64,000 bases of DNA from Clostridia bacterium. Lineage in GTDB: Bacteria > Bacillota > Clostridia > Christensenellales > DTU072. The notes under the pieces are model-generated. The model was not told the DNA's origin. It did no database searches and was given only the letters and a program-made list of their open reading frames with translations. Below are positions 12,961 through 64,000 of this stretch, in pieces (position 1 is the first letter of the stretch; every line of letters begins with the position of its first letter). The DNA lies in contig JAFQOO010000010.1 of NCBI GenBank assembly GCA_017403145.1, positions 96,151-160,150 of the forward strand, given 5' to 3'. A program made the position numbers and the translations under genes.

Positions 12961-12989
12961 TTGCCCACGCGGTTAAAATGATATATAAT
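12961..12989 (+). promoter_or_regulatory. Sigma-A promoter TTGCCC-17-TATAAT for the HTH-cupin-acyl-CoA synthetase gene
   Basis: TTGCCC at 12961-12966 and TATAAT at 12984-12989. Direct 9-mers GTTAAAAT(G/A) at 12972 and 12997 flank the -10. Confidence 0.5.
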
Positions 12990-13033
12990 ATGGAAAGTTA
13001 AAATAAAAGGCGCAACACCTATATAAGGAAAAT

Positions 13034-35170: not shown

Positions 35171-35905
35171 CTATTCTCCTATACTATAACTTGATTGGGG
35201 TACTACAAAGTCGCTCTCTCCGTTGGATATCGAACCGCTTTGAACACTTATGGTACCCGAACTGCTTGGTTTAGTTGCTTTAACATTCAATATTGTGTCT
35301 CCGTCGTTTATGCAGTCGTAACCGCTTTCCGAGTAAACTACCACTACCATAGAGCTAACGGAAACCGAGTATATTTCCATTTTAAAAGCGCTTGTTAACT
35401 TGAGGGTGGGCTCGCTTAGAACAATTCCGCCCGAGGTGGAAAGAGTAAATCTAAGAGCATATACTCCACCGCTAACCGTGCTTGCCTTATCTGCCTTTAT
35501 ATCGACGTCGTAACCGGTCTTACTTTCGTTTTCTACCACACCAATATTAAACCTAAATGAAGTTTCTACCGAAAGAGAGCTTTGTACCTTGTAAATATAG
35601 TTGGCACTCTTGCCTTTATAGGTAACGGAAAGCGTTCTACCCGTCGTAGTAGTCGAGGTATCAAAGCCACTAACCATACCCTCGGTAATACTTATGCTTG
35701 CAGTAGAGCCATCGGTATAGGTAACGAGTATTTTGGATGCGCTTAGGTTCAATTTTTCATCTAGCGCGTAAATTTCCTTGAACGAACCTTGTATTATTTG
35801 AATGGAAGATACCGCTTTTTCTTTGTTACAAGCAGTAAGCATACATACGAATACTAGGCAAAGGAGTATCACCGTTATTATCGTTCTAATATTTTTCTTA
35901 TTCAT
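35171..35905 (-). CDS. Lipoprotein with one Ig-like (Big_3-type) domain and a C-terminal cohesin-like domain
   Basis: Lipobox LLCLVFVCMLTAC. Ig-like domain KILVTYTDGSTASISITEGMVSGFD...TLSVTYKGKSANYIYKV. The C-terminal ~125 aa show a cohesin-like strand pattern. The start overlaps the upstream stop by 8 nt (ATGAATAA). Confidence 0.7.
   Translation of the reverse strand: MNKKNIRTIITVILLCLVFVCMLTACNKEKAVSSIQIIQGSFKEIYALDEKLNLSASKILVTYTDGSTASISITEGMVSGFDTSTTTTGRTLSVTYKGKSANYIYKVQSSLSVETSFRFNIGVVENESKTGYDVDIKADKASTVSGGVYALRFTLSTSGGIVLSEPTLKLTSAFKMEIYSVSVSSMVVVVYSESGYDCINDGDTILNVKATKPSSSGTISVQSGSISNGESDFVVPQSSYSIGE
35210..35593 (-). other. Cohesin-like module of the lipoprotein (inferred)
   Basis: FRFNIGVVENESKTGYDVDIKADKASTVSGGVYALRFTLSTSGG...SMVVVVYSESGYDCINDGDTILNVKATKPSSSGTISV. 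This parallels the type I cohesin pattern (V.I.V......G..V.VPV......GI....F.L.YD......IVFLF.D.....I..DGVFA.I.FKVK). By-eye comparison only. Confidence 0.4.
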
Positions 35906-42324: not shown

Positions 42325-42360
42325 CAACAAAAAAAGCTCCGAATTTCTTCGGAGCTTTTA
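42325..42360 (-). terminator. Strong rho-independent terminator of the giant gene
   Basis: On the minus strand: AAAAGCTCCGAA-gaaa-TTCGGAGCTTTT followed by TTTTGTTG, starting 13 nt after the stop codon. Confidence 0.8.
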
Positions 42361-42372: not shown

Positions 42373-45300
42373 TTATACTATATCGATTGAGCAGAACAAC
42401 GTTAGCTTGTTGCTGTCGCTGAACGCCATTTCGGTTACTAGGGTGTATCTACCGTTTTGACGACTGCGTTCTGTGGTGATTGCACCAAATCCGCCGTTTA
42501 CCAACGAACCATAGGTTCCGTTCAAGGGGTTCCACTTGTTCGGGTCTTCCTTGCTGTTGGTGTAGTATACCTTTGCGTTTTGCCACGGGATGAGATACAT
42601 CAAGTCGTATTCGAAGCCTGCCATAGTTTGTGATTCGAATACTCCCATAAATCCGCCGGGGTTGTATTCAACGGTAGGTCTGCTTTCGGTTACTGCTATG
42701 GTGGGCAAGTTCCTCAAGTCGAAGGTACTGTTGATTGCAACGCTTATTACAGGTACTGCAGTTTGTTGGAATCTATTGTTGTTGTAAGTTACTTTGTAGC
42801 TCGTAGCGTTCTTGGGCATAGTTACCGAGGAGTCGCCTGTTACCGTTACTGCACCTAACGCACTCATATTCATAGGATAGGTCCAAGTATCGGGTACTAA
42901 AGGTCTGATTTCGCTATATCCAAACATTGCGTCGGGATGATAGATATATGCACCAAAGTCTTTCAAGTTGTCATAAGGTCCACTGCCACCGCCGGCATCT
43001 CTTACAGGAGTTGCATCTTGGATGATGGGGTCGCGATATACTGCAAATACAATCTTGCCACCTACCGATTTGTTGGGCTTGGGATATGCACGATACTTGG
43101 TTGCGTCCCAAGTGATATAGCTTACGTAACCCGAACCATCGCTTACCTTTTGGTCTCCGCCATCGTTGAAGGAATAGTGGTAAGAAGGAGTATGCTTTTC
43201 TGCAACAACCTTGTATTCTTCGCCTTCCACTCTCTTTACGCCCAAGGGGTAAGTATCGTTTGCACTTCCGCCTACCGAGTAGTAGCTAGACATTCCGGTG
43301 GAGTAATGTAGCGGTATCTTTCTAGCTTGGTTCAAGGTCGAACCGCTGAATAGTTGCTTATAGGTGCTATCAAGGGTAATGGTTTCTTCCATTTGCATTG
43401 CGTACATTGTGGGTACGGTGTTATTTACTAGAGCCTTAGCGCTATTTACGTAGAAGCCCCATTTTACCGTTTGACCACCCTTTCCGCCAAGCGTCATAGT
43501 TGCGTATTGCATTACGGTGGAAGGTGCGTTCCAGTTTACCATATCGAAGTTCCACTTCATATAGTTATCACGGAATGAGCCACCGCCCGCTACTCCGGTG
43601 AAGGAGAAGGTACGTGCATCTTCTCCGCTAGTGAAGGTAATGGTATAAACGTCGTTTCTGTAAATACCGGTACCTGCTACGATTTCTATATTGCCTTCGG
43701 TGGAAACGCTCAAGATGTTTGCATCTCTTACGGTTTCGTTGCCGGGCATCAAGATTACTTCTTCTTTACCATAAGCATAACCTTCTAGGAACAATACGTC
43801 TTCTTCTTTTTGAGTATCCAGCGTCCACTCATCGGATAGATGGAACTTGAAGTTGTATACTTGTCCGTCTAGGTCGAGTTGGAATGCGGTTGTATGGTCT
43901 AGCTCGTTATACTTGATTCTCGTGCGGTTGTTTACTACGTTATCCCAAGAGGTGTCGCTCAAGAATGCGTAGGTTGCATTGTCTATAGTCTCGTATTGAG
44001 CTTGAGCATCATCCATCTTAGGTCCAACGTATACTAGTGCTTGTGTGGGAACCGGTATACCGCCCTTACTAATGAAGTAGTACGGATTATCTACGTAGTA
44101 GCTATCTAGATAGTAGGAACCATATTGCGTTTCGAAACGTACTATAGCATCGCCGTCGTCGGTACCGAACGCATCGGGGTCTACTTGTTGTAGCCACTCG
44201 TAGTAATCGAGGTCGTAGTAATCGGGATTATCTTCGTTACCTTCGGCGCCTGCCTTGTTTTCGTTAAAGAATCTTACACCGTGTACGTAGGATTCTGCTA
44301 CGGGAACGTCAAATCTTGCAAGTTGTTGTCCCTTTGCACCAAGACCGAAGCCGGGGATGGTGATATAGAATCTTGCATCTTTACCCTTATGTCCAAGACC
44401 TCTTGCTCCGTCTAGGATGAAGCCCATCTTCAAGTTCATTTCACTTTCGGTAATAACGAACTTGCTTCCTTGTTCAACAGATGCGCTGTTTGCACTTGCT
44501 AGTGCGCCGATGGTGAAGGTGATGGTCTTGTTCTTCCAGCAATCTCTGTTGCTCATATTGCCGAACTCTACTACGAATGCTTCTTTGGTTCTGAAGTAAT
44601 CTGCAACTACCGATGCGCTTACGTCATCAACGTAGCTGTACAAGTAGGGTTGAATCATTGCGTCTTTATCCTTCAATACGTTGGTAAATCCGGTAACGGT
44701 TCTGTCTTCAACGATTACTTTGTAACGCAAGATTTGTTCGAACGTGCCATTGTAGCTTATGGTTGCGGTAACGTATCCGGTGTTAGAACCGCTATAGGTG
44801 CGAATTACCTTGCTGTCGTCCCATTCTACCAATACGCCGTTACCCTTTGTGGAGAAGGAACCAATCGTTCCGTCTGCGAATAGAACCTTGCTACCTGATT
44901 GCGGGTAGATATCGTTACGTCCTTCATAGGACTCGAAGGGGTCTATTTCAAAGTGAACGGTTGCGGGTGCGCCTTCGGGAGTAGTATCGAATGCATAAGG
45001 TACTTCGTCAACGTCGAACAACGATACGATTTGTCTATTTGCATAGTTTACGGGAATGGTGATGGTTTGATATCCACCAAGCTCGTTACCTATAGTTGCA
45101 TAAATTCTTGCGGTACCACCTTGAACGCCAATCTTACCTGCTTCTTTACCATAGGTATCGAAGATGGTCAACGCATCGGTGCGGTCGTAAACGATATCGG
45201 ACTCGAATTCTTGTCCCGATACGCTCATAAACTTACCTTGATGCGTTACGGTCATTTGATTTTCGTCGCTGATGCCTGCGAAGGGAGCGATTTCGGTAGC

Positions 45301-51300: not shown

Positions 51301-54300
51301 AACTGCGTTGTTTAGAGTAATCTTTGCATAAACGCTCTTGTCGATAAAGTCAAGTTCACGAGAGTAACCGGTCATGATATTGCCATCATCGTCGAAGGTT
51401 GCGTTTATATTAACCTTACCATCGTCTTCACCGTCTATAACGGCACCGAGGTTGGAGTAATTGTAGTAGTTCTTGTAGTTGTATCCTACTAGATTATCGC
51501 CGGCATCAAGAATACCTGCATTCGAAATCAAGTCTTTAACGTCGGTTGCAAGGTGTCCGTGCTCTTTGATTAGTAGCGTTTGGATATCCGCGTCGAGAGC
51601 TACGCCCGAAATGGTAGAGGTAGGTCTAGACTCGTCTAGTTTAGGCTCGTAAACACCGGTTTGGTTGTCGTATTCACTATCCAAATAGGTGTATTCTGCA
51701 TCCGGGTCTGCCCACAAGGTTGATGCAACGGAGGTTTGCTTCAAGGGGCTACCATCTAGATTTTGCTCGTCTATCATACTGTAAGCATAGGTAAACGGTA
51801 GCAAGTGTGATAGCAAGCGTAGTGCTTGGTCGAAGATATCAATCAAGAAGTCGATTTGATATAGTACCATTTGAACGATGTTCATAATGGTGCCCGCATT
51901 ATCGCCAAGAGCTGAACCTAGAGCAAAGTTTAGTACGAATCCTAGTAACGAACCTACTAGTCTGCTACCTGCTGAGTACAAGGTATCTCTATAGTAGGAC
52001 TCGGTGTCGTATACGTAGTCGTACATCATTATGTCTTGTTCTTCGTTGAATTCACCAACGAATTGTAGCTTGTTAACCTTCTTATCATCGGTGCCTTCGG
52101 GTATAGCACATAGGTCAGCCATATTGTAACGTTGTTCCTTGGAAATGGGACTATATCCGCTATAACCAAGTAGCAAGTTGTGAACGATATCGAATACACC
52201 GTTTATCATGCTGGAAGAAATCCAAGCTTCTATATAGGTGATGGAGTCGGAGGTATCTTCCTTACCTTCTTCGTAACCTGCAACGTAGTTGGTCCACGGT
52301 ACGAATACGGGCTTGCCCATGGGGTCTAGATATTGAGAAGTGGTATCAACGCCGGATACGGAACCGAACAAGGAACCTAGTACGTTACCTGCAAGGGTGG
52401 AAACTATAGTACCACCGATACCGCCTATTGCGTTGCTGATAGCATTCTTGATAGCACTGGAAGCTTGTCCCTTTGCGGTATCAAGGAGTGCGTTAACAGC
52501 TTGGTCGCCTAGTTTGGTTAGGTAGGAGTATTGGGTTAGCGGTATACCGTCTTGAGTGTAACCTGCGTCGGAGGGGTCTTGTGCTTGGTCGACAACGTCT
52601 CTACTTGAAGCATCGGATAGGTCTGCACCTAGACGTAGACGTAAGCCTTCGATGGGTAATCCGCCTGCAGTAGCGTTGCTATTAGCAATCCACTCGGGTA
52701 TTTCTTTGGGCTCTAGGAAGATTTCACCATAGTTGTAGAAGTTCGATTGAGTAGTCAAGGTATGACGACCAACGTCGAAGTTGGTGTAATCGGTTGCTCT
52801 TATCTTCAAGTTGTACTCTCTGTTGAGGAGTAGGTTGGGGATAGAGAAGGTACCATCACTGTTCAATGCGTTAGCCTTATCGTTCAACTCGGTTTGGCTA
52901 CCGTTGATTTGTACGGAGCCGAGGAAGTTTCTTGCATTGTTTTGCCAATACAAGTCGCCTTGAGCCATTCCCGTACCATCCGCTTTCTTGAACGAACGAG
53001 TATTTTGATTACCACCGTTGTAGTCGTCGGACATTCTAATGGTTCTACCATCTAGCTCTAGCCATACTTCTACGCCACTGAGAACGGGAGTGGTAGAAGC
53101 CTTTGCTATAGCAAGGACTACTCTGTATGCAGTTTCGGTACCACCGTTTTCAGCAACGTATTTTTGAGTGGTGAAGCCACGAACTTCAACTATGCTCTTA
53201 ATATCGTAGCTGATTGCGTGATAGTACAAGGAAGGAATCTTTTCGGTGATTTCAAAGCCGGACTTGTTTGCTAGCTTTTCATCAACGAAGTTCTTTATTG
53301 CGTTGGTTACGTTATTCTTTGAGGGATAATCGTATACGCGATATTCAACGTAGTTTCTATCGAACGATGCGTATAGCTTGCCACCTGCAGCCTCAGCTAG
53401 CGGGTCGTCGAACGTTGTGTTAAAGTAAGAATTGATTTGGTTGGTTGCAGCATCGTCATAAGTGGGATTTTCGGTTGCATCCTTACCTAGCAAGGTGAAT
53501 ACTTCACTTGCGCTACCATCCATAATCCAATCGTTCTTCAAGGTTACGAGGATACCACTCAAGGTACCAACGGTCGGGTCGTGATAACCGGTGGTCTTGA
53601 AGTATACGTCATAAGGATTGCTTTCACTCTTCGAGTTAGGAGTACCATCTCCGTTAAGTTCCAATGCCAAATTGCTTTGTAGCATTTGTCCATTGGCCTT
53701 CTTTAGTTGAATTGCGTGGTTGAAGCCCTTGAGTGAAGGAACTACTACTTGTAGAACACCATCTGCTCCGGTGGTACCCAATTCGGTTGCAACGCCGTCT
53801 ATTAGGATATATACGGTTGCACCGACCATAGGACGAAGAGCGGTATTGTTTGCTTCGTACTCTTCTTCACCCCTTACTCTTAGGTGTACGTTTGTCCAAA
53901 CGGTTTCTCTATACTCGGAAAGAGTAAAGTTTGCTTCGGTTGCAGGATACTCGTTAGAACGTAGTACCGTTGCGTAAACGGGAGTCTCGCCTCTACGCGG
54001 TAAATCGTTATAACCCTTCTTGGTTATCTTTACGCTATATCTTGCAGGACGAATGTTAATGAATGCGTAGTTACCGTCTTTATCGGTGGTGGTTGTATAT
54101 CTTCCGCCATCTAGGTCTACCAAAGCATCGGCAACGGGTTCCCATTCTCCGGTACTATTATTATATGTGTTTACGTTACCATACAATGAACCAAAGTTTG
54201 TATCTTCCTCAACAGGCTTGAGCGAAGCTACTAACGTGGGCAAGAAGGTGGGTAGATACAAGTTTACTACGGGAATACCGCCTGCTCCACCGCCCAATAC

Positions 54301-57300
54301 GTCGTCAAGAATTTGACCAATACGTAGCGGTGAACCATATCCGGTAGCATCACCTATCATATCGGCTATCCAAGTAGAAACGTACGGACCTGCGAAGTCC
54401 CAAACTATTCCTACTACCTGTCCGGCAATTCCATTGATAGCTCCTGCTATGGTTTCTAGCAACCAGCCTGCAACTGTGTTGATTAGACCACTCAAGTCTA
54501 TTACCAAGATGTTAGCTAGACTTAGGTGTAGAACGTTGTTCTTCAAGAATGCGGTTAGACCTTGAGGCTCCCAATCTTCTTCGTTTGAAAGTGAACCTTG
54601 AACGTTTGCAACTTGGGTTAACTGTGCAATGGGGATTTCCGTCTTATTGGTCATAGTCTTGTTAAGAGCAAGCCTAATTCTTCTATATGCGTTATCGAAG
54701 AATATGGGTTCGTATGCCTTTAACAATCCACCAACGTCAATGCTAATACTGGTATTGGGAATGCTTAGTACCCAATCGAATGCACCACCCTTAGATACGA
54801 ATGCGTGGTCGTAAGAGGTTAGTCCACCGGTTGATTCGTTTGCACGGTTTCTAATTACGGGGCTGAAGTAGGTGGGACCGGTCGAATAGCTGGTTCCTAG
54901 AGCGGAAATTTCGAGGGTACCGTTTGCGCCACCATAACCGAGGTTACGTAGGAAGAAGTAGTCGTTACGTTTTTCGATATACAAGGTGAAATCGCTAAAC
55001 GAGATAACGTCTAGTAATCCTTGTGCAAGGCTCAATGCGTTAATGTTAGCGGCGAGGTTACCTGCGGAATCCATACCGAGGGACAAGCCTTCGATACCAC
55101 CGTATAGGCTTTCGTCGCCCACACTAATTTGTTTTTGATATTGTTCTGCAGTCGCACCAAGAGCAATAGCAAAGTTGCCTTCTTGTACACCTACGTTCAA
55201 GTAGTTGCCCTTTTGGTCTAGCTTGATACGCAAATTCAAGTTGTTTAGACCTTGATATAGGTTTATAGAAAGTCTAATGTCGCTCAATGCGGGCAATGCC
55301 ATACTATCGCCTAGTAGACTTTGAACGATTGCCATATTGGGATTGATGATGATTTCCTCGTTGGACATCAAAATCTTCAATAGCGGTGAATCGGTAGCGG
55401 TGATTAGGTCGATAGTAGCGTTTTGTGCCTTATCGGAAAGGCTTACTGCTTCGGTTTGTGCACTTGCGTTGGAAAGTGCGTTGTTTGCGTTTAGTGCTGC
55501 TCTTTCTTCATCCTCTACGGTGAGTATGCCGGCAAGCATTTCGTTTAAGTTGATGCCTTCTTCGCCGAGGAATCCACCGAGGAAGTTGTTGAGTATGCCA
55601 AGAACGTCAACACCGTTTAGTGCTGCTTGGAATAGGCCAAGACCACTCAAGTTGACGTAAACGGTATTAACTTGACCGATAAAGTATACGCCTATTAGCT
55701 CTTCGCCGGTTAGGTTAATAGTTAGAGCAAGAGCGGTGTTGGACATATCTGCTAGGTCAGCGTAAACGGTTAGACCAAGTGAGAATACCAATACGGTGTC
55801 TTGAACGTCAAAGTTGATGGTGTCGGCAGAAAGTCCCAACAAGTCTTGTAGTAGATTTTGTACTGCTATGAGTTGCGGAGGCTTTTCTTCGGAATCTTTG
55901 GTGCGTACGCGAGCTTCAAGTTCGAGGTTCAATGCAACCTTATTGATGATACCGATATCTTCGTAAACGATACCATCTTCACCCGTTCCTTCAACGAATT
56001 CACGAGCATCGATAGAAGAATCTCTTTCGGGTTTACCTTGTGCTTCAAGAACGCTATCTGCCCACATATCGAACGAGCCACCAATGTTTAGACCAATGCG
56101 GAATGCCTTCTCGTAAGGAGTATCGTCGGTAAGTCTCAAGCATAGACCGTATACACCGTCTTCCTCGGAGTAACCGATTTGCAAGTTTCTAAACATAGGT
56201 ATTAGAATTTGTGAACCACCAAGTACGCTGGATATAGCGGCATTCTTGAATGCGTTAGAAATTAGTGAATATGCCAATGCACCGGTGATTGCGAGAGAGG
56301 TTTCGTCTGCGCCGAAGGTTAGAAGAAGTAGTCTTTCGGTCCAACCATAATCTTTGAGGTATACTCTTTCGATTTCTTGCTTTTCAATAGCATCGCCTGA
56401 TGCACCTGCGTTGTCGTTAGCGTTTTCGCCTTCGTTTTGTGCACCTGCGTTTTGTACTTCAGCGCCTGCGTTTGCAACAGCATTGGAGCCTGCATCGGTG
56501 CTTTCGTCGCTAGCACCAAGTCCGCTGATGAGGTTACGTAGTACTGCACCAAGTTGAATTCCTTCAAGCTTCAAGCTGGGGAAGCCTAGACCGCTTAGGT
56601 CTACGTAAATGGTACTGCTTTCATAAATGCCATACTCGTCTACTGCGTATCCGCCTTGATAGGTGATAAGAGCCATAGTCTTATCGTTGTAGGTCATTTC
56701 GAGTTGTAGACGGAAGGGTTCGATGCTACCAAAGTCGATATATAATCTTAGTGCCAATTGTACCGAAATTGCTATATCGTCAATGGGTTGTAGAGCCATA
56801 TTGATTTGGCTAATCATTTCGCCTATTCCGGGTCCTAACAATCCGCCAACGGTACCAAGAAGCTCGCTCATATCGAATAGACCGCCAACGGTGTCGTCGA
56901 TTTTAAATTCGAGGGTAACTTCTGCTTCCATTTCGTACTCAGACAAGGGCTTGAAGTAGGTTGAGAAGTATTCTAGATAATCTTCTCTCATCATAGAACC
57001 GAGAGGAGTTTCGGCAAAGATGTTGGTTTGACCCAAACCGATATCGATACCGTGAATCTTAACACCAACGTTGTACATACTCTTGGTGCTGGATACAGCC
57101 ATAAGTACCTTATAATCTGCAACGTTACCAAAGCTATCCAATACTTCAGCGACCTTAACGGATACGTTAAGCATTGCTGCATAGTGGTGGAAGGTATGTA
57201 CACCTTGTGCGTTTTGACTCCATACGTACGTGCTCTTATGGAGAATATCGGATATGGATTCTATTACCTTTTCTGCATTAGCCTTTGCAAATTCAAGATA

Positions 57301-60300
57301 TCTTGTAGTGCCGGGTAGATATGCAGAATCGATAGCATAATAGTCGGAAGGATTATAGATGAAATAGAATACGTTACGTGTTCCGGAGTTCTCTAGCGGG
57401 AAGTCCTTATCTTCCGTGATAACTTGTTGTTGTAGATAGGTCTTTTCTGCAACGAGAGGTTTCTTTCCGTCGTCGGTTGCGATTTCTGCATTGACGAGGA
57501 AGCCGGATTCATAGGTTGAACGTATTTCTTCAAGAGCTGCTTTCTCGGAAACGATGCTTACTAGCTTATCGCCTAGCATAGAGCATTCGATACCTGCAAT
57601 ATTAAGAGGTATGCTGGTGTCGCCCAATACGTATGCTAGTAGAACGTTGTTTTCGGAAATCTTAATCGCTATCTTGGTTGTACTATCGGATAGAATATTG
57701 ATATCGTTTGCTATGTCGTTATTCGAGCTAAGGCCTGCGTTAACAAGAGCGTTTACGATAGCAGTTCTTACTGCGATTGCACGTTGTCTTAGCGCTTCGC
57801 TTCCGTAGGCGATATTCTTATCTAGTTCGTAAATATCATAGGTGTTATATACTAGATATCCTACCTCTTTATTGGTTCCTACGGGAATAACGTTATATGC
57901 CTCGCTGTTAAAGGAGGTGCCAATATAACCTTCGGATGCAAATACACTATAGGTTCCAATGTTATTATAGCTTGCGGTTATGCCGGTAAGTGCTATAGAG
58001 GGAGCGCCAAGTCCGTTCTTAACAGCGTCTACACTTTCTTGTGATGCAAGCGTAGTGTTAAGGTTTGCTATTTCGGTCTTGGTAACGTCGATAGGTTCTT
58101 GATAATCTAGACCAAGATTCAAAGATAGTGAGTTAGCGGTATTATCTAGGGTAACGGAGAGGTTACCTATCTTTTCGTCGAAGGGGAATCCAACGGTTTC
58201 TTTTAGCAAGGTTTGAATTGCGGTTTGAGCAACTACTATAGAAATAGCACCTTTAGTAAATTGGATACTATCAAGTAGTCCAATGAACCACATACCACTA
58301 TCTTCTTCTACTTCTTCTTCGTAATCGTAGATATTGTCTTCGTCGCTTGCTTCTTCGCCGGCGTTTTGTACGCCACTTTCTACTCCTCCATTGGAGTTAC
58401 CGTCGTTTTCATCCTTCATCTTGTCTTCGTCGCCGAGCATATCGTACAGTTGGTCAATCAAGTCGTCAAGGGTGTTAACGATACCGCCTGCGGTGTTGGA
58501 CAACGTTCCGCCGAGGCTATCCAGAACTGCGTTAAGGTTCAATGATAGGAACTCTTCGAATACTTGGTGATTTAGTTCAATACCGGTAATGCCATAGTTT
58601 TGGAAGGCACCCATAGTTAGGTATAGACCAAGTCTGCTTTCTTCGTAAGATTGTGCATCTCTATGCATTGAGCCTAGAACGTACAATGCAAAGTATTCTT
58701 CTTCAACGTCGCTTTCGCCTTCAGCATAGGTGCCGGGCTCTTTTAGTTTTACAAGTTGAACTATTGCATCGATACCCCACTTGTCAAGGTCTTTTAGTGC
58801 AACGTCTGCCTTGATACGCAAGGTTGCGTCGCCCATAATATCGTTAAGAGCTTGAATGTAGAATGCTGCACCGATTACGTTACCATCAACGTCTTCTTCG
58901 TTTTGGAATAGAGAGCTCCAGTTGAGGATATATTCACGAATATCGGCGGATACCGAAATATCGATACCGAGGTTCAATCTCCATTCGAGGTTACCGGTGG
59001 AGAAACATCCTTCCTTGAATTCTCTCATTTCCTCGTCGTTGCGCATAAAGTCGAGATATTCGTTGAAGGAATCGGTGTTGATAAGTGCAACCGAGTCGTG
59101 TAGCAAGCTTAGAGTTGCAGCATAACCTGCACTCATATACTTGTTACCATCGGGAGTTTCGATTTCCGCACTATCCTTAGTGATGTTAATTTGTAGACTT
59201 ACGCCACCCGTTCCTTCTTCGAAGAATAGACCAACCGATGCGTAGTCGAGTAGTAGATTTGCTATACCTTCGATGTGCTCGGTGGTAACTTCAACGTCGC
59301 TATCTGCGGCGCCGAGTAGTCCGGTCAAAATTTCGATTAGAGCATCGCCAACGCCAATGATTAATTCTTTAGTAACCATCAAGCCAAAGCCTTCACTATT
59401 CAAGTAAATGATAGGCTTTAGGAAGTTGCCGATAGCATAATCGCTTTCTTGGTACATATCTATAATAGGATTACGCGCGGGACCATCGGGAGCGGTTGAG
59501 GGGGCGTTTTGAACGTCGGAGCCACCGCCAACACCTTGGTCAACGTCGGCCATATCGAATATATCGCTCATTATATCACGTACGAAAGCGGTAATATCGA
59601 ATTCGTCAAGCTTAATATCAAGGTTGGTGTCGAATATTTCAAGACCGAGATATGCAACGTTATCAACCATATAAACTTGTAGTAGTTTTTGAGTGTCGTA
59701 AATTTCACCGGTAGTGTTATCGATAATTGTATAACGTACTACGAGGTCAACTATTAGTGCCGAACCGAATACTTCTGGGTCGGTAGAAAGCATTCTCTTG
59801 AGGTCTAGACCTGCTTTGAGGTTGATTTCCATAAACAAGGTCTCGTCGCCACCTGCAAGAACTATAGAGGTATCTAGGTCTTCGGGAAGCTTGATGTTGA
59901 GCATACTAAATACCACTTCGAGTAGGTCAACGAGTGAAACGTCGCCGTCTTCAAAGTCAAGTTGAAGACTCAAGTTGGTACCAATTTGGAATGCCATTTC
60001 GTCGTACTTGGTGTAAGAGCTTCTTTCTTCTGCGCTTATAACGGGTACGAGAGTAGACTCCTTACCGTAAGGAGTATAAATTTCGGTTTCGTTTTGGATA
60101 TCAGCCTTGATATTTTGTCCTAGTATGGAAATACCAAAGTTGATACCTGCGCCTGCGTTATAGTCTTGAGCATCGGTAACGATAACCCTATCACCATTTT
60201 CGTCAACAACGTACTCGCCGTTTTCATCATATAGATAGCTACCTAAAATGTGGTTACCATTTTCATCGTATACGTAGTTGCCATCTTTGTCTACAAGGTA

Positions 60301-63300
60301 TCTACCTATTACGTATTCGCCCGTTGCGGGGTCGATTACCCAATGGTCGCGGTAGTCTTTACCGGTATCTAGGTGAATACCTACTTGATATTCACTTTGA
60401 GGAGTCATACCGATATCAACGCTGGGCTCAAGAACGCCTGCCAAGTAATCTTGTAGGTCGATATCTAGACCAACGAGCATTAGTAGAACGTTAATCATTT
60501 CGAAGGTTACGGTTAAGAGTAGTCCATCGTCTTGTGAGAGGAGTATCTTAACGATACCGATTAGTTGTTCTTCTGCTTCTTCACCATTGAGTGCAAGCAT
60601 TTGTCCCCAAGTGGGATAGGTCTCGGCAAATAGTGCTTCTACTTCGGGAGTAATAGCAACGTTTTGAGCTTCGCCTTCGCCACCTTCCCCTTCTTCGGTA
60701 TTTCCACCATTCATAATGTACTCAAACATACCCATTAGTTCCCAAATTTCAATCTTGCCTAAGCCGATTGTAGAAAGGTCAAGGTATAGGTCGCCATCAA
60801 ACAGAGCAATGGAGATATAGAATCTTTCTTTATCCTTCAAGGAGTATATTTCTACCTTGAGTTGTAGCTTGTTGAGTAGTCCGTCTAGACCGCCCTTAAT
60901 GAATGCTTTTGCAAGAATATCAATTCTAATGGTATCGCCAAAGGAATCTTCATCACCCTTCAAGAAGCCAAGCATTATGAGGTTGGGTAGTGCGGTTGCA
61001 AGAGGACTATCCTTACTAAATAGAGTTTCAAATGCGGTATCCTTAGCCATTCCGCCAAGAGGTCCGTTGATATCCAAAATGGTATCGTATAGGTTGCCGA
61101 GGTCTACAACACCATCGTTAATCTTGAACTTGATTTCAAAGCCTGCTTCTAGTTCGATGGTATTAACGTCGTGTGCGGGTAGATAGTTAGCGGTTTGCGG
61201 GAGGATAAGTTTATCAGAGGGATATGCTTCAAAGTTCAAGTCGTGGTCGCCTAGTGCTATACCGAGGTCAAGAACCTTGGAAGTTTCCATCGTGGTTTCG
61301 CTAGTGCTGGTAGCGGAAAGTTCTAAATCGATACCAAGGTTAAAGCTGTTCTTCTTGGGGGCAAGGGAAATTTGTAGTAATACGTCGCTAAATACCTTTA
61401 ATGAAGGTAGCGGTACTATGCCAAGAACACTATTTACTGCGGTTTCGGTTAGATATAATGCTAGACCATAAGTAGCAATGCCTCTAATGAGCATAGGTGC
61501 ACCGAGGTCGATATTGATGGGAGTATAAGCGCCACCGTTTGCGTTTTGTGCGCCGGCGTTTTGTACTTCACCTTCGGTACCTTCTTCCTTGTCTTCGTTA
61601 GAGCCCGTGCCAAAGCCGAGGTCGATATCTTTTTCACCTAGCAAGCTTTCGAGAACTTCTTCAACACTAAACTTAGGTCCGTTCAAATAGGTCAAGTCAA
61701 CGTACAAGTTGGAGTTGTGGAGGTTTACTTGAACAAGTTTATAATCGTGGTTACCATCAACGCGTCTTACGGTTAATTGAACCTCGATACCTCTATAGTT
61801 GAGTAGAGGTAGGTTTACTAGAATTTCTACAACCAAGCTGATTTGATGTTCACCAACAACCTCTAGAAGAATACCTAGAGTGTTATCGAGCATACCTGCA
61901 AGAAGGCTTGCAAGTAGCGATGTTAAAGGTTCTTTGTTAAGGTCGTAACCGGAGTATACTTCGTCGGTCAAGATACCTAGTAGACCTTCGCCGGTAATAG
62001 CTTCGGAGCCGAGGTCAAAGTAAAGGTTTAGACCAAAGCTTACTACAGGGTCGGTATGGTCGAAGTCAACGTAATCTTGTTTTACGTAATCGTAAAGAAC
62101 GTTGCCTTCGTCGTCGAGGGTTTCGCCATCAACGTATGCATATTGAGGAGCTACCATCGTGTGGTCAACGAAAACAGACTCTACTCTAATAGAACCATCC
62201 TTTTCCTTATAATAGGTATCTTCTATCCAACCAAAGCTCAATGCCATTGTAAATTCGTTGGATATACCAAACGACAAGCCAATCTTTCCACCCTTTTCGT
62301 AATCGTGTACGTTGGGGTCGGTGGAAAGGTCAACTCTTTCGTCGCCTGCAAACTTGTATCCTTGGAAGGTTAAACCGAACTCTAATACGTGGTCGGGACC
62401 GGCTATACCAAGTTCTATTTCAAGTTCACCGATGGGTTCAACGTAGCTAGAGAAGTCCATAGCCTCGCCACCAATTGCACGTAGTATGCCAAATAGTGCG
62501 GCGGAGGTGATGCTGATAATCAAGCCTTGAGGACTAATTAGAGCGTTGATATATCCTACGATAGGAGTTGCGCCTTCGGGTAGGTTGAATAGTACGAAGG
62601 GGTCAAAGTTAGATTGATAGCCTGCAAAGCCGTGATTCTTGACCTCTTCTTCTTCCTTACCATAGTTGGGGTCTTTACCGCCTTCAACGTGTTCTACGCC
62701 GAATGAAGGTAGTATATCTTGGGTTAGGAAGTTCCAAGCATCTTCTATCTTAACTGCTTGTAGATTGAAGCATTCTGCATTCAAATAAGCACAGCTATCG
62801 ATATGATAGAAGGAAAGAACTTCTTTGAACTTTTCTTCACCATCGTAGTTAACGGTTTCATTTCTATCGCGTAAAATTACAGCAAAGTTCGTCTTGTAGA
62901 AAGTCATATTGTAAATGATTTCGCCCAAGTTGATATTGCCTATAATTTCAAGTCTATAGTGAGTGGTTACGTTGGAAAGAAGTTGAATGATGGGAGCAAG
63001 ACCAAGTCCGCCGATAGTATCCATAATACCGCCTGAACCAAGTAATCCAAGAGCCCCTGCTACGGTTTCGTCAAGGTTGAATTTAGCGGTATCGTCGCCA
63101 TCAATATCAAAATCAATATATAATTCAACGTAAATGGAGTCAACGTCAACTGCTCCTGCGTAGTTGTTCTTATCAAAGCCTTCGGGTGCGATATTTACGT
63201 CGCCCATTTCGTCGGAAGCATCTCTAAAGTCAACGTCTAGACCCATTATTGCAAAGCCTACGGTGTAGTTTGCAAGCTCTAGAGTTAATCCTAGTAGTGC

Positions 63301-64000
63301 GTTTTCGTCGTCTTCTGCAACGATGCCTTCGTCGGTTTCTTTAGTCCAGAAATCGTTCATAAAGGCTAGGTTTGCAATTAAACCTAGTTGCAATGCAAAG
63401 TTATCGTTTACGATATCGGCAACTAGTCCGCCCAAATCGTCAACGCCTTCTATACCTAAATCAAGACCGCCGAGAACTGCGAACAATACTGCGCCCATTA
63501 TGTCGATAATGAAGCCGGTTCCGTTACCAAATACCATTCTTACGTAGGGAAGTAGTGCTTCGCTATCTACTTCTTCGTTCATAGCGTACTTGGCTAGATA
63601 TTCTTCGTCGCTCATCTTACCGCTTGCACGAAGCTCGCTGATACTTGCATTGTTTACTACTTCTTCGTCGCCTTCGTAAATTTCGTCGTCGTCTTCGTTT
63701 TCTTTATCATAGTAGTCGTCCAAATCGTCGCCACCAATCAATCCGAAGATAACGTCCATAAACTTGTCTATCTTTAGTCTTTGGATACCAAGTATACGAC
63801 CATCGATATATGCGGTACCGTCTTTATAATATATTGATATGTAGTCGACTACTTTTTCGGTATATTTTACGGTATAACCCTTTAGTTCACTTTGTTCAAC
63901 GTCGATAAATTCTCTTTCAACTTCTAGACCTATGCGGAGTAGGAACTCTATTCTAACGAGTAGCCAATTGATATCGTTAGTTGCAAGGAAGAGCATAATA
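42373..64000 (-). CDS. Giant (at least 7,207 aa) multidomain protein, probably 5'-truncated by the window: diverged long-module array, Gly-zipper hydrophobic segments, CarboxypepD_reg-like domains and an Ig-like (Big_4-type) array
   Basis: Uninterrupted frame of 21.6 kb. The codon upstream of the first ATG (63999-63997) is sense. There is no signal peptide at the apparent N-terminus. Domain motifs are listed in the findings. Confidence 0.9.
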   Translation of the reverse strand, partial: IMLFLATNDINWLLVRIEFLLRIGLEVEREFIDVEQSELKGYTVKYTEKVVDYISIYYKDGTAYIDGRILGIQRLKIDKFMDVIFGLIGGDDLDDYYDKENEDDDEIYEGDEEVVNNASISELRASGKMSDEEYLAKYAMNEEVDSEALLPYVRMVFGNGTGFIIDIMGAVLFAVLGGLDLGIEGVDDLGGLVADIVNDNFALQLGLIANLAFMNDFWTKETDEGIVAEDDENALLGLTLELANYTVGFAIMGLDVDFRDASDEMGDVNIAPEGFDKNNYAGAVDVDSIYVELYIDFDIDGDDTAKFNLDETVAGALGLLGSGGIMDTIGGLGLAPIIQLLSNVTTHYRLEIIGNINLGEIIYNMTFYKTNFAVILRDRNETVNYDGEEKFKEVLSFYHIDSCAYLNAECFNLQAVKIEDAWNFLTQDILPSFGVEHVEGGKDPNYGKEEEEVKNHGFAGYQSNFDPFVLFNLPEGATPIVGYINALISPQGLIISITSAALFGILRAIGGEAMDFSSYVEPIGELEIELGIAGPDHVLEFGLTFQGYKFAGDERVDLSTDPNVHDYEKGGKIGLSFGISNEFTMALSFGWIEDTYYKEKDGSIRVESVFVDHTMVAPQYAYVDGETLDDEGNVLYDYVKQDYVDFDHTDPVVSFGLNLYFDLGSEAITGEGLLGILTDEVYSGYDLNKEPLTSLLASLLAGMLDNTLGILLEVVGEHQISLVVEILVNLPLLNYRGIEVQLTVRRVDGNHDYKLVQVNLHNSNLYVDLTYLNGPKFSVEEVLESLLGEKDIDLGFGTGSNEDKEEGTEGEVQNAGAQNANGGAYTPINIDLGAPMLIRGIATYGLALYLTETAVNSVLGIVPLPSLKVFSDVLLQISLAPKKNSFNLGIDLELSATSTSETTMETSKVLDLGIALGDHDLNFEAYPSDKLILPQTANYLPAHDVNTIELEAGFEIKFKINDGVVDLGNLYDTILDINGPLGGMAKDTAFETLFSKDSPLATALPNLIMLGFLKGDEDSFGDTIRIDILAKAFIKGGLDGLLNKLQLKVEIYSLKDKERFYISIALFDGDLYLDLSTIGLGKIEIWELMGMFEYIMNGGNTEEGEGGEGEAQNVAITPEVEALFAETYPTWGQMLALNGEEAEEQLIGIVKILLSQDDGLLLTVTFEMINVLLMLVGLDIDLQDYLAGVLEPSVDIGMTPQSEYQVGIHLDTGKDYRDHWVIDPATGEYVIGRYLVDKDGNYVYDENGNHILGSYLYDENGEYVVDENGDRVIVTDAQDYNAGAGINFGISILGQNIKADIQNETEIYTPYGKESTLVPVISAEERSSYTKYDEMAFQIGTNLSLQLDFEDGDVSLVDLLEVVFSMLNIKLPEDLDTSIVLAGGDETLFMEINLKAGLDLKRMLSTDPEVFGSALIVDLVVRYTIIDNTTGEIYDTQKLLQVYMVDNVAYLGLEIFDTNLDIKLDEFDITAFVRDIMSDIFDMADVDQGVGGGSDVQNAPSTAPDGPARNPIIDMYQESDYAIGNFLKPIIYLNSEGFGLMVTKELIIGVGDALIEILTGLLGAADSDVEVTTEHIEGIANLLLDYASVGLFFEEGTGGVSLQINITKDSAEIETPDGNKYMSAGYAATLSLLHDSVALINTDSFNEYLDFMRNDEEMREFKEGCFSTGNLEWRLNLGIDISVSADIREYILNWSSLFQNEEDVDGNVIGAAFYIQALNDIMGDATLRIKADVALKDLDKWGIDAIVQLVKLKEPGTYAEGESDVEEEYFALYVLGSMHRDAQSYEESRLGLYLTMGAFQNYGITGIELNHQVFEEFLSLNLNAVLDSLGGTLSNTAGGIVNTLDDLIDQLYDMLGDEDKMKDENDGNSNGGVESGVQNAGEEASDEDNIYDYEEEVEEDSGMWFIGLLDSIQFTKGAISIVVAQTAIQTLLKETVGFPFDEKIGNLSVTLDNTANSLSLNLGLDYQEPIDVTKTEIANLNTTLASQESVDAVKNGLGAPSIALTGITASYNNIGTYSVFASEGYIGTSFNSEAYNVIPVGTNKEVGYLVYNTYDIYELDKNIAYGSEALRQRAIAVRTAIVNALVNAGLSSNNDIANDINILSDSTTKIAIKISENNVLLAYVLGDTSIPLNIAGIECSMLGDKLVSIVSEKAALEEIRSTYESGFLVNAEIATDDGKKPLVAEKTYLQQQVITEDKDFPLENSGTRNVFYFIYNPSDYYAIDSAYLPGTTRYLEFAKANAEKVIESISDILHKSTYVWSQNAQGVHTFHHYAAMLNVSVKVAEVLDSFGNVADYKVLMAVSSTKSMYNVGVKIHGIDIGLGQTNIFAETPLGSMMREDYLEYFSTYFKPLSEYEMEAEVTLEFKIDDTVGGLFDMSELLGTVGGLLGPGIGEMISQINMALQPIDDIAISVQLALRLYIDFGSIEPFRLQLEMTYNDKTMALITYQGGYAVDEYGIYESSTIYVDLSGLGFPSLKLEGIQLGAVLRNLISGLGASDESTDAGSNAVANAGAEVQNAGAQNEGENANDNAGASGDAIEKQEIERVYLKDYGWTERLLLLTFGADETSLAITGALAYSLISNAFKNAAISSVLGGSQILIPMFRNLQIGYSEEDGVYGLCLRLTDDTPYEKAFRIGLNIGGSFDMWADSVLEAQGKPERDSSIDAREFVEGTGEDGIVYEDIGIINKVALNLELEARVRTKDSEEKPPQLIAVQNLLQDLLGLSADTINFDVQDTVLVFSLGLTVYADLADMSNTALALTINLTGEELIGVYFIGQVNTVYVNLSGLGLFQAALNGVDVLGILNNFLGGFLGEEGINLNEMLAGILTVEDEERAALNANNALSNASAQTEAVSLSDKAQNATIDLITATDSPLLKILMSNEEIIINPNMAIVQSLLGDSMALPALSDIRLSINLYQGLNNLNLRIKLDQKGNYLNVGVQEGNFAIALGATAEQYQKQISVGDESLYGGIEGLSLGMDSAGNLAANINALSLAQGLLDVISFSDFTLYIEKRNDYFFLRNLGYGGANGTLEISALGTSYSTGPTYFSPVIRNRANESTGGLTSYDHAFVSKGGAFDWVLSIPNTSISIDVGGLLKAYEPIFFDNAYRRIRLALNKTMTNKTEIPIAQLTQVANVQGSLSNEEDWEPQGLTAFLKNNVLHLSLANILVIDLSGLINTVAGWLLETIAGAINGIAGQVVGIVWDFAGPYVSTWIADMIGDATGYGSPLRIGQILDDVLGGGAGGIPVVNLYLPTFLPTLVASLKPVEEDTNFGSLYGNVNTYNNSTGEWEPVADALVDLDGGRYTTTTDKDGNYAFINIRPARYSVKITKKGYNDLPRRGETPVYATVLRSNEYPATEANFTLSEYRETVWTNVHLRVRGEEEYEANNTALRPMVGATVYILIDGVATELGTTGADGVLQVVVPSLKGFNHAIQLKKANGQMLQSNLALELNGDGTPNSKSESNPYDVYFKTTGYHDPTVGTLSGILVTLKNDWIMDGSASEVFTLLGKDATENPTYDDAATNQINSYFNTTFDDPLAEAAGGKLYASFDRNYVEYRVYDYPSKNNVTNAIKNFVDEKLANKSGFEITEKIPSLYYHAISYDIKSIVEVRGFTTQKYVAENGGTETAYRVVLAIAKASTTPVLSGVEVWLELDGRTIRMSDDYNGGNQNTRSFKKADGTGMAQGDLYWQNNARNFLGSVQINGSQTELNDKANALNSDGTFSIPNLLLNREYNLKIRATDYTNFDVGRHTLTTQSNFYNYGEIFLEPKEIPEWIANSNATAGGLPIEGLRLRLGADLSDASSRDVVDQAQDPSDAGYTQDGIPLTQYSYLTKLGDQAVNALLDTAKGQASSAIKNAISNAIGGIGGTIVSTLAGNVLGSLFGSVSGVDTTSQYLDPMGKPVFVPWTNYVAGYEEGKEDTSDSITYIEAWISSSMINGVFDIVHNLLLGYSGYSPISKEQRYNMADLCAIPEGTDDKKVNKLQFVGEFNEEQDIMMYDYVYDTESYYRDTLYSAGSRLVGSLLGFVLNFALGSALGDNAGTIMNIVQMVLYQIDFLIDIFDQALRLLSHLLPFTYAYSMIDEQNLDGSPLKQTSVASTLWADPDAEYTYLDSEYDNQTGVYEPKLDESRPTSTISGVALDADIQTLLIKEHGHLATDVKDLISNAGILDAGDNLVGYNYKNYYNYSNLGAVIDGEDDGKVNINATFDDDGNIMTGYSRELDFIDKSVYAKITLNNAVDTLLDRITLFLNGASYSNATLGTVGKKYAHDADGNIIYDADGNPQMEIAADAYMPGATALRADTILYNREGEPVDDYYQEVEDMIQEWIRTNIVNSYVIISDYEYVADPVTGAVTSRLIGKTYVRDVYGHFDTHDFIYGDIAWAVSKNNYKGNFNWAGLATGGALYSDALESYNYSYVSRYPIKADGTLNYNNPGPFATAIEVMSAKDDRFQEIDINNTGLRMRSVSSITSEFYYSEAGGTAGMSEKVMLPPDTIVFHDPYNILDFTAYGGTWAQSTGGTRHNVNNDGTYAVTDIKKILPTRNYANFEDGNSDDSAGVEVYWDFSMLSFAPTLEGTKGYIIGYIAEETYSKDKNGAVQYIKAEVEGGIMVDPDSTLKLEEQGGRNNHQISWIIDEDNQEPVLDLPAIDPLTYNEEEYKKLLPETLVYTAKIRYLQQGVYQKFTLPGQTGETDYLLKRYVFNDLEWDLSDTVVKYDGSTAYAKLTYKYTRTYDNKDHVSLGKDAEAVTINVPIKVKNCLAVSADSITSRMTMNLVYQKGGNMVIALGRDAETLAGIDSANVTKYAEIADPIANELSKIYGAYTEFKGGNSSFRAYYDDATDVTYLVYGGVTREDFELYRDFYLNLGVDNVVVNNSNSYAYLEDGKVLYHYSGVVSDFTAELENNVLTVNPIDGVNIYNDIRSIKWISITANVTDRENQPVLDGEGNPITTKIENWKVVRVDASSIADVDLNATSHPLYKVIFYVTDAQGHEQGIEVFLNILPKKIVEHNLDATIADRDIAPFEDRNATQFVLSYEQGANMVLAFYPASVQANYSGVDVNALENDNVVEIVSVWPANKINKFGTGITAYNGGKSGIKTYTNANGTLYVVYEGVSESEFASYAQSYVDAGTLNKIRVNRMGESVDATKYLASGEINSFNLPSTIDVGYGIDVNSIFYRTTLVEGKDFYWRGEEKDDKLAYEYSAKDWTYTWTAVVGEGDNIQELPVTFTVEAREPRSVEQIVVYPYSSYYITGTNTEVYDNASVLENEQAVNYKTASGTAKIETEVYFDILNSDLANKVKGDKIVINGKEYLTNVTFVDPSFEGAWYFVDVLLHDDVFGYVTIKHVRVVLSKSTISGLNIPVQEVYLYDADNGINALLAQPGITASIYQIANNTIGTNAFEIVGWNYVDADGFKPAYTFVGEDVPQINVEIANVGWKQGKKVWSQQVTVTLTQDMLPAKEITGIATKFGEGYTISNNGDLVLTLDDPFKFELPTELEVSFKDGKTGMVPVTFDFGDKKFDFYSATEGIEGTITLGDKVNNQVTYKMIYVNDNPRNDIEVTYYVDANATEEFNDFTYDALEAFELPKYAKINVGGIPEDNVYDVTWKYIEAYGLEGGKIEAHAWIGDEVFGYIKRYEELTINAESIHNYTLPNSVSINPYAVKGIENELDKLLGLTDGCLNVTTTLGNEKALDVQYPYIPLDYRVTTTHNVDLAVGVTLDFGGVEQIVTLTEEGEIETIMDSNILEVRQNVPVMVVVESRVAVGIKTWYTDETTNITGSVYEPIDFSALGKATIVAIGQGKESTDKLIGDANSLAQLLASTGAVELESNLWPSEVFSWNSATELAKANGQIAKVYHDATRDTYYIAYRGNVDVDALLARFELSALFNKATNNSYLVAGDDVLVEVKSFDEGVTVLFSTGEEEKYDLTFDDSSVIYSFPGGTFNVKATLGSGETEQIFQFKVYLHSSYITEVGVTTAGVNKDSVVRTNESGVITELVVDPYIGFVGLPDKIMAYFDNMSSPVELDVEWNYRAILAEMTSAGGRYDASNNKSAIAIVSVKKDDGSLIVQNVEVPVTVLNRTRKSVFVSKYATTEEYEQAKLAGVVGDEFEQLQTRLTLNPYTERYSEDFNSKDFYYYKRVLIVVNSVSGEDTSANMYDKTGKELIFNLSADSYEIVDIATNRATDLKNLYTGRKVEANFSYGSTSLTAASDTRWSTSIVLTIMDMTYESGLVNSYEIDTYGIDANKATEIAPFAGISDENQMTVTHQGKFMSVSGQEFESDIVYDRTDALTIFDTYGKEAGKIGVQGGTARIYATIGNELGGYQTITIPVNYANRQIVSLFDVDEVPYAFDTTPEGAPATVHFEIDPFESYEGRNDIYPQSGSKVLFADGTIGSFSTKGNGVLVEWDDSKVIRTYSGSNTGYVTATISYNGTFEQILRYKVIVEDRTVTGFTNVLKDKDAMIQPYLYSYVDDVSASVVADYFRTKEAFVVEFGNMSNRDCWKNKTITFTIGALASANSASVEQGSKFVITESEMNLKMGFILDGARGLGHKGKDARFYITIPGFGLGAKGQQLARFDVPVAESYVHGVRFFNENKAGAEGNEDNPDYYDLDYYEWLQQVDPDAFGTDDGDAIVRFETQYGSYYLDSYYVDNPYYFISKGGIPVPTQALVYVGPKMDDAQAQYETIDNATYAFLSDTSWDNVVNNRTRIKYNELDHTTAFQLDLDGQVYNFKFHLSDEWTLDTQKEEDVLFLEGYAYGKEEVILMPGNETVRDANILSVSTEGNIEIVAGTGIYRNDVYTITFTSGEDARTFSFTGVAGGGSFRDNYMKWNFDMVNWNAPSTVMQYATMTLGGKGGQTVKWGFYVNSAKALVNNTVPTMYAMQMEETITLDSTYKQLFSGSTLNQARKIPLHYSTGMSSYYSVGGSANDTYPLGVKRVEGEEYKVVAEKHTPSYHYSFNDGGDQKVSDGSGYVSYITWDATKYRAYPKPNKSVGGKIVFAVYRDPIIQDATPVRDAGGGSGPYDNLKDFGAYIYHPDAMFGYSEIRPLVPDTWTYPMNMSALGAVTVTGDSSVTMPKNATSYKVTYNNNRFQQTAVPVISVAINSTFDLRNLPTIAVTESRPTVEYNPGGFMGVFESQTMAGFEYDLMYLIPWQNAKVYYTNSKEDPNKWNPLNGTYGSLVNGGFGAITTERSRQNGRYTLVTEMAFSDSNKLTLFCSIDIV

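Follow-up and report, generated by a model that had tools for sequence, protein, structure and literature searches.

A giant protein family of uncultured gut Clostridia with a predicted N-terminal lipid anchor and a long array of divergent modules

What kind of protein is encoded by a reading frame that stays open for 7,208 codons and still has no start in sight? We addressed this question for a 64,000-nucleotide stretch (hereafter the window) of contig JAFQOO010000010.1, positions 96,151 to 160,150 of the forward strand, from the Clostridia bacterium assembly GCA_017403145.1 (Christensenellales; DTU072), whose minus strand carries a giant gene that reaches the window edge. Giant bacterial surface proteins are already known as a class, as set out in three reports (PMC11573180; PMC12863079; bioRxiv 10.1101/2023.11.21.568195), and the protein described here is of that known kind. 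New are an undescribed family, a dominant module without known relative and an unusual predicted anchor, a lipobox. We consider it on balance probable that the giant protein is a lipid-anchored surface fibrillar adhesin or scaffold.

In frame 1 of the minus strand, the first stop is a TAA at 42373-42375, which is reached after 7,208 sense codons from the window edge at 63999, and in the remaining two minus frames a stop is met as early as 7 and 16 codons. The list of open reading frames (ORFs) gives 42373..63996 and 7,207 amino acids (aa) counted from the first ATG; the windowed translation opens IMLFLATNDINW / IMLFLATNDINWLLVRIEF, and the first ATG has a sense codon before it. These results bear out the original prediction, made from the nucleotide letters and their translations, of a giant ORF open to the window edge, with a sense codon ahead of its first ATG and a terminator directly behind its TAA (Table 1). 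Given ~5% stop codons in random sequence of like composition, we estimate the probability of 7,208 codons remaining open by chance at ~e^-400. The windowed protein has a mass of 792 kDa and is strongly acidic (pI 4.3).

A frame of this length might nevertheless belong to a non-functional gene, either an assembly chimera or a decaying pseudogene still open by chance, since the assembly is unverified, three related assemblies have frame breaks, and one public annotation places shadow ORFs over a related gene. However, the 7,208 open codons are matched collinearly by relatives in BLASTP (P0001 on aa 1-3224, 70% identity; P0002 on 1-2400, 82%; P0008 on 2690-5081, 99%; P0006 on 3352-7208, 48%), and because this collinearity extends over the entire length, no hidden frameshift needs to be invoked. 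An independently assembled ENA metagenome contig (L021), which covers one third of the windowed giant gene, matches nucleotides (nt) 7953-15243 of the coding sequence (7.3 kb) at 98.7% with zero gaps. The codon differences between the two, 68 synonymous and 21 non-synonymous (dN/dS roughly 0.1), make purifying selection on the giant gene evident at the sequence level. Repeat-collapse mis-assembly was rejected, as long internal DNA repeats are lacking within the giant gene, whose sole repeat family is a 30-nt element in three copies with 67-83% identity. Recent horizontal transfer was likewise rejected on GC content (44.3%) and codon usage, both of which are native (relative synonymous codon usage r = 0.86 versus other window genes), as is GC at third codon positions. 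With five complete ORFs recovered elsewhere (see below), an artefact or pseudogene is close to refuted, the least probable of the alternatives that we weighed. The giant gene is real and intact so far as sequence data can show, its integrity having been judged via collinearity with relatives and one independent contig.

The true start was located through the same relatives. Residue 1 of the windowed protein aligns to residue 2308 of P0001 and residue 2343 of P0002 (70-82% identical), and because of this alignment ~2,300 codons are expected beyond the window edge, giving a full protein of ~9,500 aa (2,307-2,342 + 7,208). The windowed gene should be the distal three quarters of a ~9,500-codon gene. 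The upstream continuation had been anticipated in the original prediction; in relatives it comprises the ~2,300 codons before the window start and is headed by a lipoprotein signal peptide. Each of the four relatives that the N-terminal half retrieved starts in a signal peptide ending at a lipobox (e.g. MNRNLAHKLILLLIVVALAVALFAC/SPR), and a PROSITE-style lipobox pattern fits 12 of 12 N-complete family members, with the Cys at position 25-28. Thus, the anchor is most likely an N-terminal lipobox cysteine outside the window, which would be unusual for a protein of such size. The C-terminus (...KLTLFCSIDIV, followed by the stop) has no LPXTG, hydrophobic tail or known anchor domain. Scans with Pfam and NCBIfam found no SLH, choline-binding, dockerin, catalytic or toxin family anywhere in the windowed protein, in keeping with what had been noticed from the letters.

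Most of the protein ahead of its C-terminal part is built from one kind of module. Internal similarity is faint in a plain self-BLAST, and profile tiles with iterated hidden Markov models (HMMs) revealed a β-rich module of ~250-350 aa repeated along the entire N-terminal part. The family HMM recovers 296 module instances, with 14 in series in every full-length member over the N-terminal 4,000-5,200 aa; within the window lie modules 8-14, preceded by the end of module 7, and together they make up about two-fifths of the windowed part (Table 1). Pairwise identity among modules is only 13-24%. Positional counterparts in P0012 and P0017 score 21-192 bits, as opposed to 16 bits or less for other modules of the same protein, and the two HMM pieces of module 13 both map onto a single module, P0012 3371-3748. 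Because the modules are nearest to their positional counterparts in distant relatives, the array is old, fixed in order and not homogenised. This supports the earlier view that the architecture is unlike that of near-identical tandem-repeat adhesins of the Ebh and Bap types. Family members also vary by large insertions in or between modules, as seen in the extra domains of P0013, P0014, P0022 and module 13 of the window (aa ~1960-2330), and a region of more than 2,000 aa in P0029 (5,267 aa) reads as low-complexity and helical. The array seems to tolerate such lineage-specific additions.

The first ~3,100 aa of the windowed protein, the region of modules 8-14, had been said to match no nameable family, and the identification of the N-terminal half as part of a characterised family had been put forward as grounds for rejecting the prediction. 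Neither Pfam, NCBIfam nor PDB sequences place it in one. Pfam at E up to 1 gave no match in aa 1-3250, NCBIfam gave no match at all in the windowed giant protein, and PDB sequences compared with both halves and two profiles gave none even at E = 10. When 46 modules were scanned singly against Pfam (E up to 5), ten different lone chance matches and no recurring family were obtained, and the module consensus had no Pfam match. An AlphaFold2 model of module 10 (aa 822-1100), built on an alignment of 46 orthologous and paralogous modules (A4), reached a pTM of 0.60 and a pLDDT of 75, most of its final 80 residues exceeding 90. The model is an α/β domain in which long strands (11-17 residues each) predominate and a hydrophobic helix lies close to the start. 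Foldseek found no significant match to it in the PDB (best E = 0.46, TM 0.27 or less) or in BFVD (best E = 0.013, TM 0.14). Matches to β-rich pore-forming toxins and porins were non-significant and were not taken as homology. Compared with PDB and BFVD structures, we provisionally regard the modelled module as a candidate new fold.

The long strands raise the possibility of a bridge-like lipid-transfer or groove protein of the AsmA/TamB/VPS13 kind, made of long amphipathic β strands. Each module begins with a hydrophobic helix, and the weak, non-significant Foldseek matches include lipid-binding β folds, among them LmcA, PRELID1, a BPI-like protein and ApoB. However, AsmA, TamB and DUF490-type families are not matched in Pfam, no Foldseek match to the PDB falls below E 0.4, and the disordered acidic linkers between modules would interrupt a continuous groove. 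The organism is moreover seemingly a monoderm member of the Clostridia, which would have no second membrane to bridge, and we consider this explanation very improbable.

In the C-terminal part, the transition region that follows the modules has moderately hydrophobic stretches with charged residues and no clear transmembrane helix, and transmembrane segments in mid-protein were rejected since the hydropathy peaks all carry charged residues. The CarboxypepD_reg-like domain was detected by PF13620 at aa 3287-3332 with 32.3 bits (E = 1.3e-7), exactly at the gathering score of 32.3, and is also recorded in P0008, P0012, P0016, P0017 and P0020. Further on, iterated HMMs detected at least six to seven related Big_4-like copies, near aa 4537-4598, 4639-4757, 5551-5649, 5874-5961, 5984-6073, 6236-6329 and 6351-6440. 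Against the PF07532 gathering score of 22.1, the best single window copy reaches 20.8 bits and the family repeat consensus 24.5 bits, and two other repeat consensuses match Big_4 weakly (15.5-16.4 bits). The immunoglobulin (Ig)-like array is interrupted by two copies of a 130-aa insert (aa 4761-4893 and 5019-5150), and the insert has no Pfam match. Conservation is highest in the last 909 aa, with a mean column identity of 60% in alignment A3.

Between the modules lie acidic linkers (median 33 aa) rich in Ala, Gly, Glu, Ser, Asp and Asn, which carry short recurring motifs. The dipeptide NA is present in 104 of 203 linkers versus 54.5 +/- 6.5 after shuffling, and QN[AV] in five of the eight window linkers versus 0.3. 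QNA would be expected about once in the windowed protein; QNA and QNV together were counted 11 times, seven of them in gaps between or just after modules. Besides the example in Table 1, copies of QN[AV] start at aa 818, 1112, 1497, 1878, 2516 and 2859, and sit in acidic Gly/Ala-rich linkers except for that at aa 2859, which lies past module 14. The three 30-nt DNA copies (61546-61575, 58351-58380 and 56437-56466) encode (E/G)VQNAG, so that the motif is visible at the DNA level although the neighbouring modules are unrelated in DNA. The distant P0020 also has QN[AV] (6 of 11 linkers). Other members carry other motifs, E..GT.[DE] in 4 of 12 linkers of P0036 and [AS]L[AS]T[AET] in 5 of 14 linkers of P0039, with ~0 expected after shuffling in both cases, and no enriched motif was found in the linkers of P0013, P0016 and P0021. 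These motifs could mark places where the chain is processed or cross-linked, or they could have arisen incidentally as low-complexity sequence evolved.

If they were such sites, the giant protein might be a polyprotein or a cross-linking substrate, with its linkers acted on by a transglutaminase-like enzyme or an M6 protease to give ~300-aa pieces or a covalent matrix. The enrichment of NA, QN[AV] and the motifs of other lineages over shuffled linkers is consistent with this, as is the genomic neighbourhood, with a transglutaminase-core lipoprotein encoded upstream in four related loci and an M6 protease downstream in the windowed clade. However, three lineages lack any enriched motif, Gln is not conserved where the transglutaminase-like gene exists (P0012, P0017), and the modules, which differ in sequence and are fixed in position, are not exchangeable units. 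As the motifs may also be the evolutionary by-product noted above, we regard this explanation as rather unlikely. Marginally less likely still is a composite proposal, in which the 14-module array would be a new fold serving as a wall-spanning stalk that is cut or cross-linked at the linker motifs after export into a fixed extracellular matrix. If true, such a matrix would be a Gram-positive surface structure built without sortase or S-layer.

A survey of related genomes for orthologues, which had been suggested at the outset, indicates that the gene recurs in few lineages. A word-indexed search of 5.8 billion proteins returned four relatives of the N-terminal half and six of the C-terminal part, and a profile search of 1.84 billion cluster representatives with the module returned 42 proteins, many of them giant (7,125-7,879 aa). 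When one genome was scanned for each of 185,579 species, 15 loci with a GC content of 37-55% were obtained, from Ca. Stercoripulliclostridium (closest, 77% identity), sheep-rectum Clostridia, Christensenellaceae and similar metagenome-assembled genomes (MAGs). Complete single ORFs (7,125-7,879 aa) are present on five further contigs (L022, L023, L024, L025/L026 and L028), and in six other species the giant frame runs without a stop up to the edge of the DNA examined, over at least 4,222-4,239 aa. On these sequences, the family is confined to uncultured Christensenellales-like gut Clostridia. We found no description of it in the literature, and the database copies inspected are unnamed or labelled hypothetical. 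The family is under-counted because MAG annotations routinely break the gene or mis-call it. In one relative (L001 45-9839; GCA_964480195.1, CAYZOJ010000002.1), the public annotation calls nine short genes on the minus strand, opposite a plus-strand ORF of 3,264 aa; this ORF corresponds to the upstream portion of the giant gene, and the short genes look like mis-annotated shadow ORFs.

Table 1 Features of the giant gene and its downstream neighbours in the window (aa, residues of the windowed protein)
Feature	Positions	Strand	Evidence or remark
3' part of giant gene (7,208 codons + TAA)	42373..63999	minus	ORF and alignment to relatives
Intrinsic-terminator-like hairpin (12 bp) and T-run	42332..42359	minus	Directly after giant-gene stop
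Module 7, C-terminal end (aa 8-91)	63727..63978	minus	Family HMM; cut by window edge
Module 8 (aa 143-427)	62719..63573	minus	HMM; best match is positional counterpart P0012 1928-2157
Module 9 (aa 474-793)	61621..62580	minus	HMM and positional match
Module 10 (aa 840-1097)	60709..61482	minus	HMM; AlphaFold2 model made on aa 822-1100
Module 11 (aa 1140-1487)	59539..60582	minus	HMM and positional match
Module 12 (aa 1530-1822)	58534..59412	minus	HMM and positional match
Module 13 (aa 1908-2492)	56524..58278	minus	HMM in two pieces, aa 1908-2134 and 2245-2492
Module 14, last (aa 2554-2808)	55576..56340	minus	HMM, self-BLAST and positional match
Linker motif example VQNAG (aa 812-816)	61552..61566	minus	Motif scan
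Transition after modules (aa 2830-3260)	54220..55512	minus	Leu/Ala/Gly-rich; conserved in relatives
CarboxypepD_reg-like β-sandwich (aa 3288-3358)	53926..54138	minus	Pfam PF13620
Central acidic region (aa 3800-4210)	51370..52602	minus	Gly-rich with hydrophobic stretches; no family match
Big_4-like Ig array, ~90-aa domains (from ~aa 4490)	44680..50532	minus	Iterated HMMs; consensus versus PF07532
Conserved C-terminal 909 aa	42376..45102	minus	Alignment A3; final strand ...CSIDIV conserved; no sorting signal
M6 metalloprotease gene (2,110 aa), downstream	35898..42230	minus	Pfam/NCBIfam and synteny
244-aa lipoprotein (LTAC/N) with Big_3	35171..35905	minus	Domain scan and synteny
GH20 β-N-acetylhexosaminidase, syntenic	33702..35168	minus	Domain scan; no signal peptide seen in N-terminal sequence

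The genes around the giant gene suggest possible partners. The M6 neighbour encodes an N-terminal signal or anchor, an M6 domain with its HExxH as HETAH (TIGR03296, 116.6 bits versus a cut-off of 110.8; PF05547, 23.9 bits versus 22), RCC1 repeats, Big_2/Big_3 and a dockerin, and has its own promoter-like site (TTGACG-17-TATAAT, 42292-42264, 11 of 12 matches). Downstream of the giant gene, L002, L003 and L022 also carry the genes for the M6 protease and the small Big_3 lipoprotein, and L006-L009, L012, L013, L016 and L017 have large ORFs there that match in size and order; the adjacent GH20 is confirmed by Pfam only in L002 among relatives. Upstream, relatives share a conserved set consisting of a 950-1,050-aa lipoprotein with Big_2 and a transglutaminase core, a ~280-aa mutarotase-like protein, a ROK kinase and a PIG-L deacetylase. 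The Cys-His-Asp motifs of the transglutaminase-core lipoprotein are intact in all four loci where the protein is fully seen. The cluster is incomplete in L004, L023, L024 and L028. Because the outer flanks differ between loci, which span the GC range given above, the cluster is probably held together by function and not by shared ancestry alone.

The dockerin of the M6 neighbour is of type I (aa 2027-2072, E = 2.9e-8) and occurs in the windowed lineage; related M6 copies are without it according to Pfam, and the L022 copy begins with a lipobox. How this partner is attached to the surface seems to vary from lineage to lineage. Docking of the M6 protein onto the giant protein by a cohesin-dockerin pair was considered and rejected, since no cohesin was found in the large proteins of the window and Pfam detects no dockerin in the related copies.

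These neighbours bear on a further alternative, namely that the giant protein is not a nutrient or host adhesin but an envelope scaffold, ordering the wall zone as an S-layer or sheath does, or a tether to other microbes, and that the flanking GH20, ROK, PIG-L and mutarotase-like proteins act in the turnover of cell-wall amino sugars. Its anchor and modular anatomy would be identical to those of the adhesin or scaffold that we favour. The neighbouring enzymes are of kinds able to act in GlcNAc/MurNAc recycling, and those inspected have no signal peptide; no known ligand-binding domain was found in the giant protein, and giant proteins of other uncultured bacteria have been tied to cell-cell interaction (bioRxiv 10.1101/2023.11.21.568195). 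However, SLH, cell-wall-binding and self-assembly domains are lacking, and the gene is restricted to few gut lineages, as would be expected of a niche function more than of a core component of the envelope. We consider this alternative unlikely, albeit the least unlikely of the rivals.

Returning to a lipid-anchored surface fibrillar adhesin or scaffold, we propose that, after export, the precursor receives a lipid at the lipobox Cys, as the sequences of relatives suggest, and that its N-terminus would in this way be held at the outside of the cytoplasmic membrane. The 14 β-rich modules and their acidic linkers may then form a long segmented stalk through and past the cell wall. The distal ~4,000 aa, with the CarboxypepD_reg-like domain, the acidic region, the Big_4-like Ig array and the 130-aa inserts, could provide binding surfaces. 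The giant protein probably acts with the co-conserved surface lipoproteins, i.e. the transglutaminase-like protein (Cys-His-Asp, with Big_2), the M6 protease and the small Big_3 protein, and the flanking, seemingly cytoplasmic enzymes (GH20, PIG-L, ROK and mutarotase-like) suggest the capture and use of GlcNAc-containing glycoconjugates, for example mucin, chitin or cell-wall material. This link to glycan foraging, suggested by gene neighbourhood, is less probable than the surface role itself.

Several observations weigh against this proposal. The N-terminus of the windowed gene lies outside the window, and its lipobox is predicted from relatives; surface exposure, stalk geometry and any ligand are likewise inferences. 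No adhesive, carbohydrate-binding or catalytic domain was recognised in the giant protein by Pfam or NCBIfam (E up to 1). The first AlphaFold model (aa 455-1115, from the five-sequence alignment A1) had a pLDDT of only 31.8 and was unusable, and the second is weak in its N-terminal third. The giant frame is broken at differing places in L001, L002 and L004; the L002 break is likely an indel, since homology carries on in another frame, and the breaks may reflect assembly error or could represent decay. The upstream cluster is missing in L004 and the M6 gene is missing downstream in L023, L025 and L028, and the neighbouring sugar enzymes could serve the recycling of cell-wall sugars, linked to the giant gene merely by genome order.

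Two further genes of the window were recorded in passing, both on the minus strand. A 559-aa protein (29259-30938) has no Pfam or NCBIfam match and no visible signal peptide; a gene of like size comes after GH20 in L002 and possibly at other loci, with a P-type ATPase sitting between the two here. A single 2,278-aa ORF at 19456-26292 combines AddB features (ADDB_N, PD-(D/E)XK nuclease) with subsequent AddA features (UvrD helicase N- and C-terminal domains), such that AddB and AddA appear to be fused into one reading frame. The AddA and AddB helicase-nuclease subunits are normally encoded by two adjacent genes.

With ~9,500 residues, the protein would rank among the largest of the Bacillota and take up a noticeable share of probably small genomes. 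The family provides a handle on how uncultured Christensenellales-like bacteria make contact with what surrounds them in the guts of chickens, ruminants and other hosts, and its conserved transglutaminase-like, M6 and GlcNAc-enzyme partners lead to testable hypotheses on mucin or chitin foraging or on sortase-independent building of the surface.

Among known systems, the fibrillar adhesins of the Ebh, Bap, SiiE and LapA types are similar in being very large and acidic, with an anchor, a stalk of serial domains and Ig-like arrays, and in lacking an enzymatic domain. The 14 serial modules and the Big_4-like array correspond to the stalk by which fibrillar adhesins are recognised, whereas the adhesive domain by which they are also recognised was not detected here. 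The giant protein has neither the C-terminal LPXTG with hydrophobic tail nor the near-identical tandem repeats that mark Ebh and Bap. Its anchor would be an N-terminal lipobox instead of an LPXTG/sortase, type I secretion system (T1SS) or autotransporter arrangement, and its stalk units are ~300 aa in length, 13-24% identical, fixed in position and of no known family, with no recognised adhesive tip. The C-terminal half shares domain types with surface arrays of Big_4 (PF07532) and CarboxypepD_reg (PF13620), but its copies are very diverged and make up only part of the protein. The transglutaminase-related lipoproteins of NF045980 (MAG6410 family) are matched partially by the upstream neighbour (62.6 bits versus a cut-off of 450).

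The giant genes of Omnitrophota and other lineages, as treated in bioRxiv 10.1101/2023.11.21.568195, are similarly rare, metagenomic and often fragmented in assemblies, and cell-surface interactions have been proposed for them. However, as characterised there, giants of this type reach tens of thousands of residues and are tied to cell-wall degradation by predators, whereas the protein described here belongs to gut Clostridia and has no degradative domain. Giant1-4 of Apilactobacillus kunkeei have an N-terminal β-solenoid as in serine-rich repeat proteins, according to PMC12863079, whereas none was found here; a sequence relationship to Giant1-5 turned up in no search, a direct comparison not having been run. 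Giant1-5 resemble the present family in that they are surface proteins of a member of the Bacillota, are 3,000-8,000 aa in length, occupy much of a small genome and contain few classical domains.

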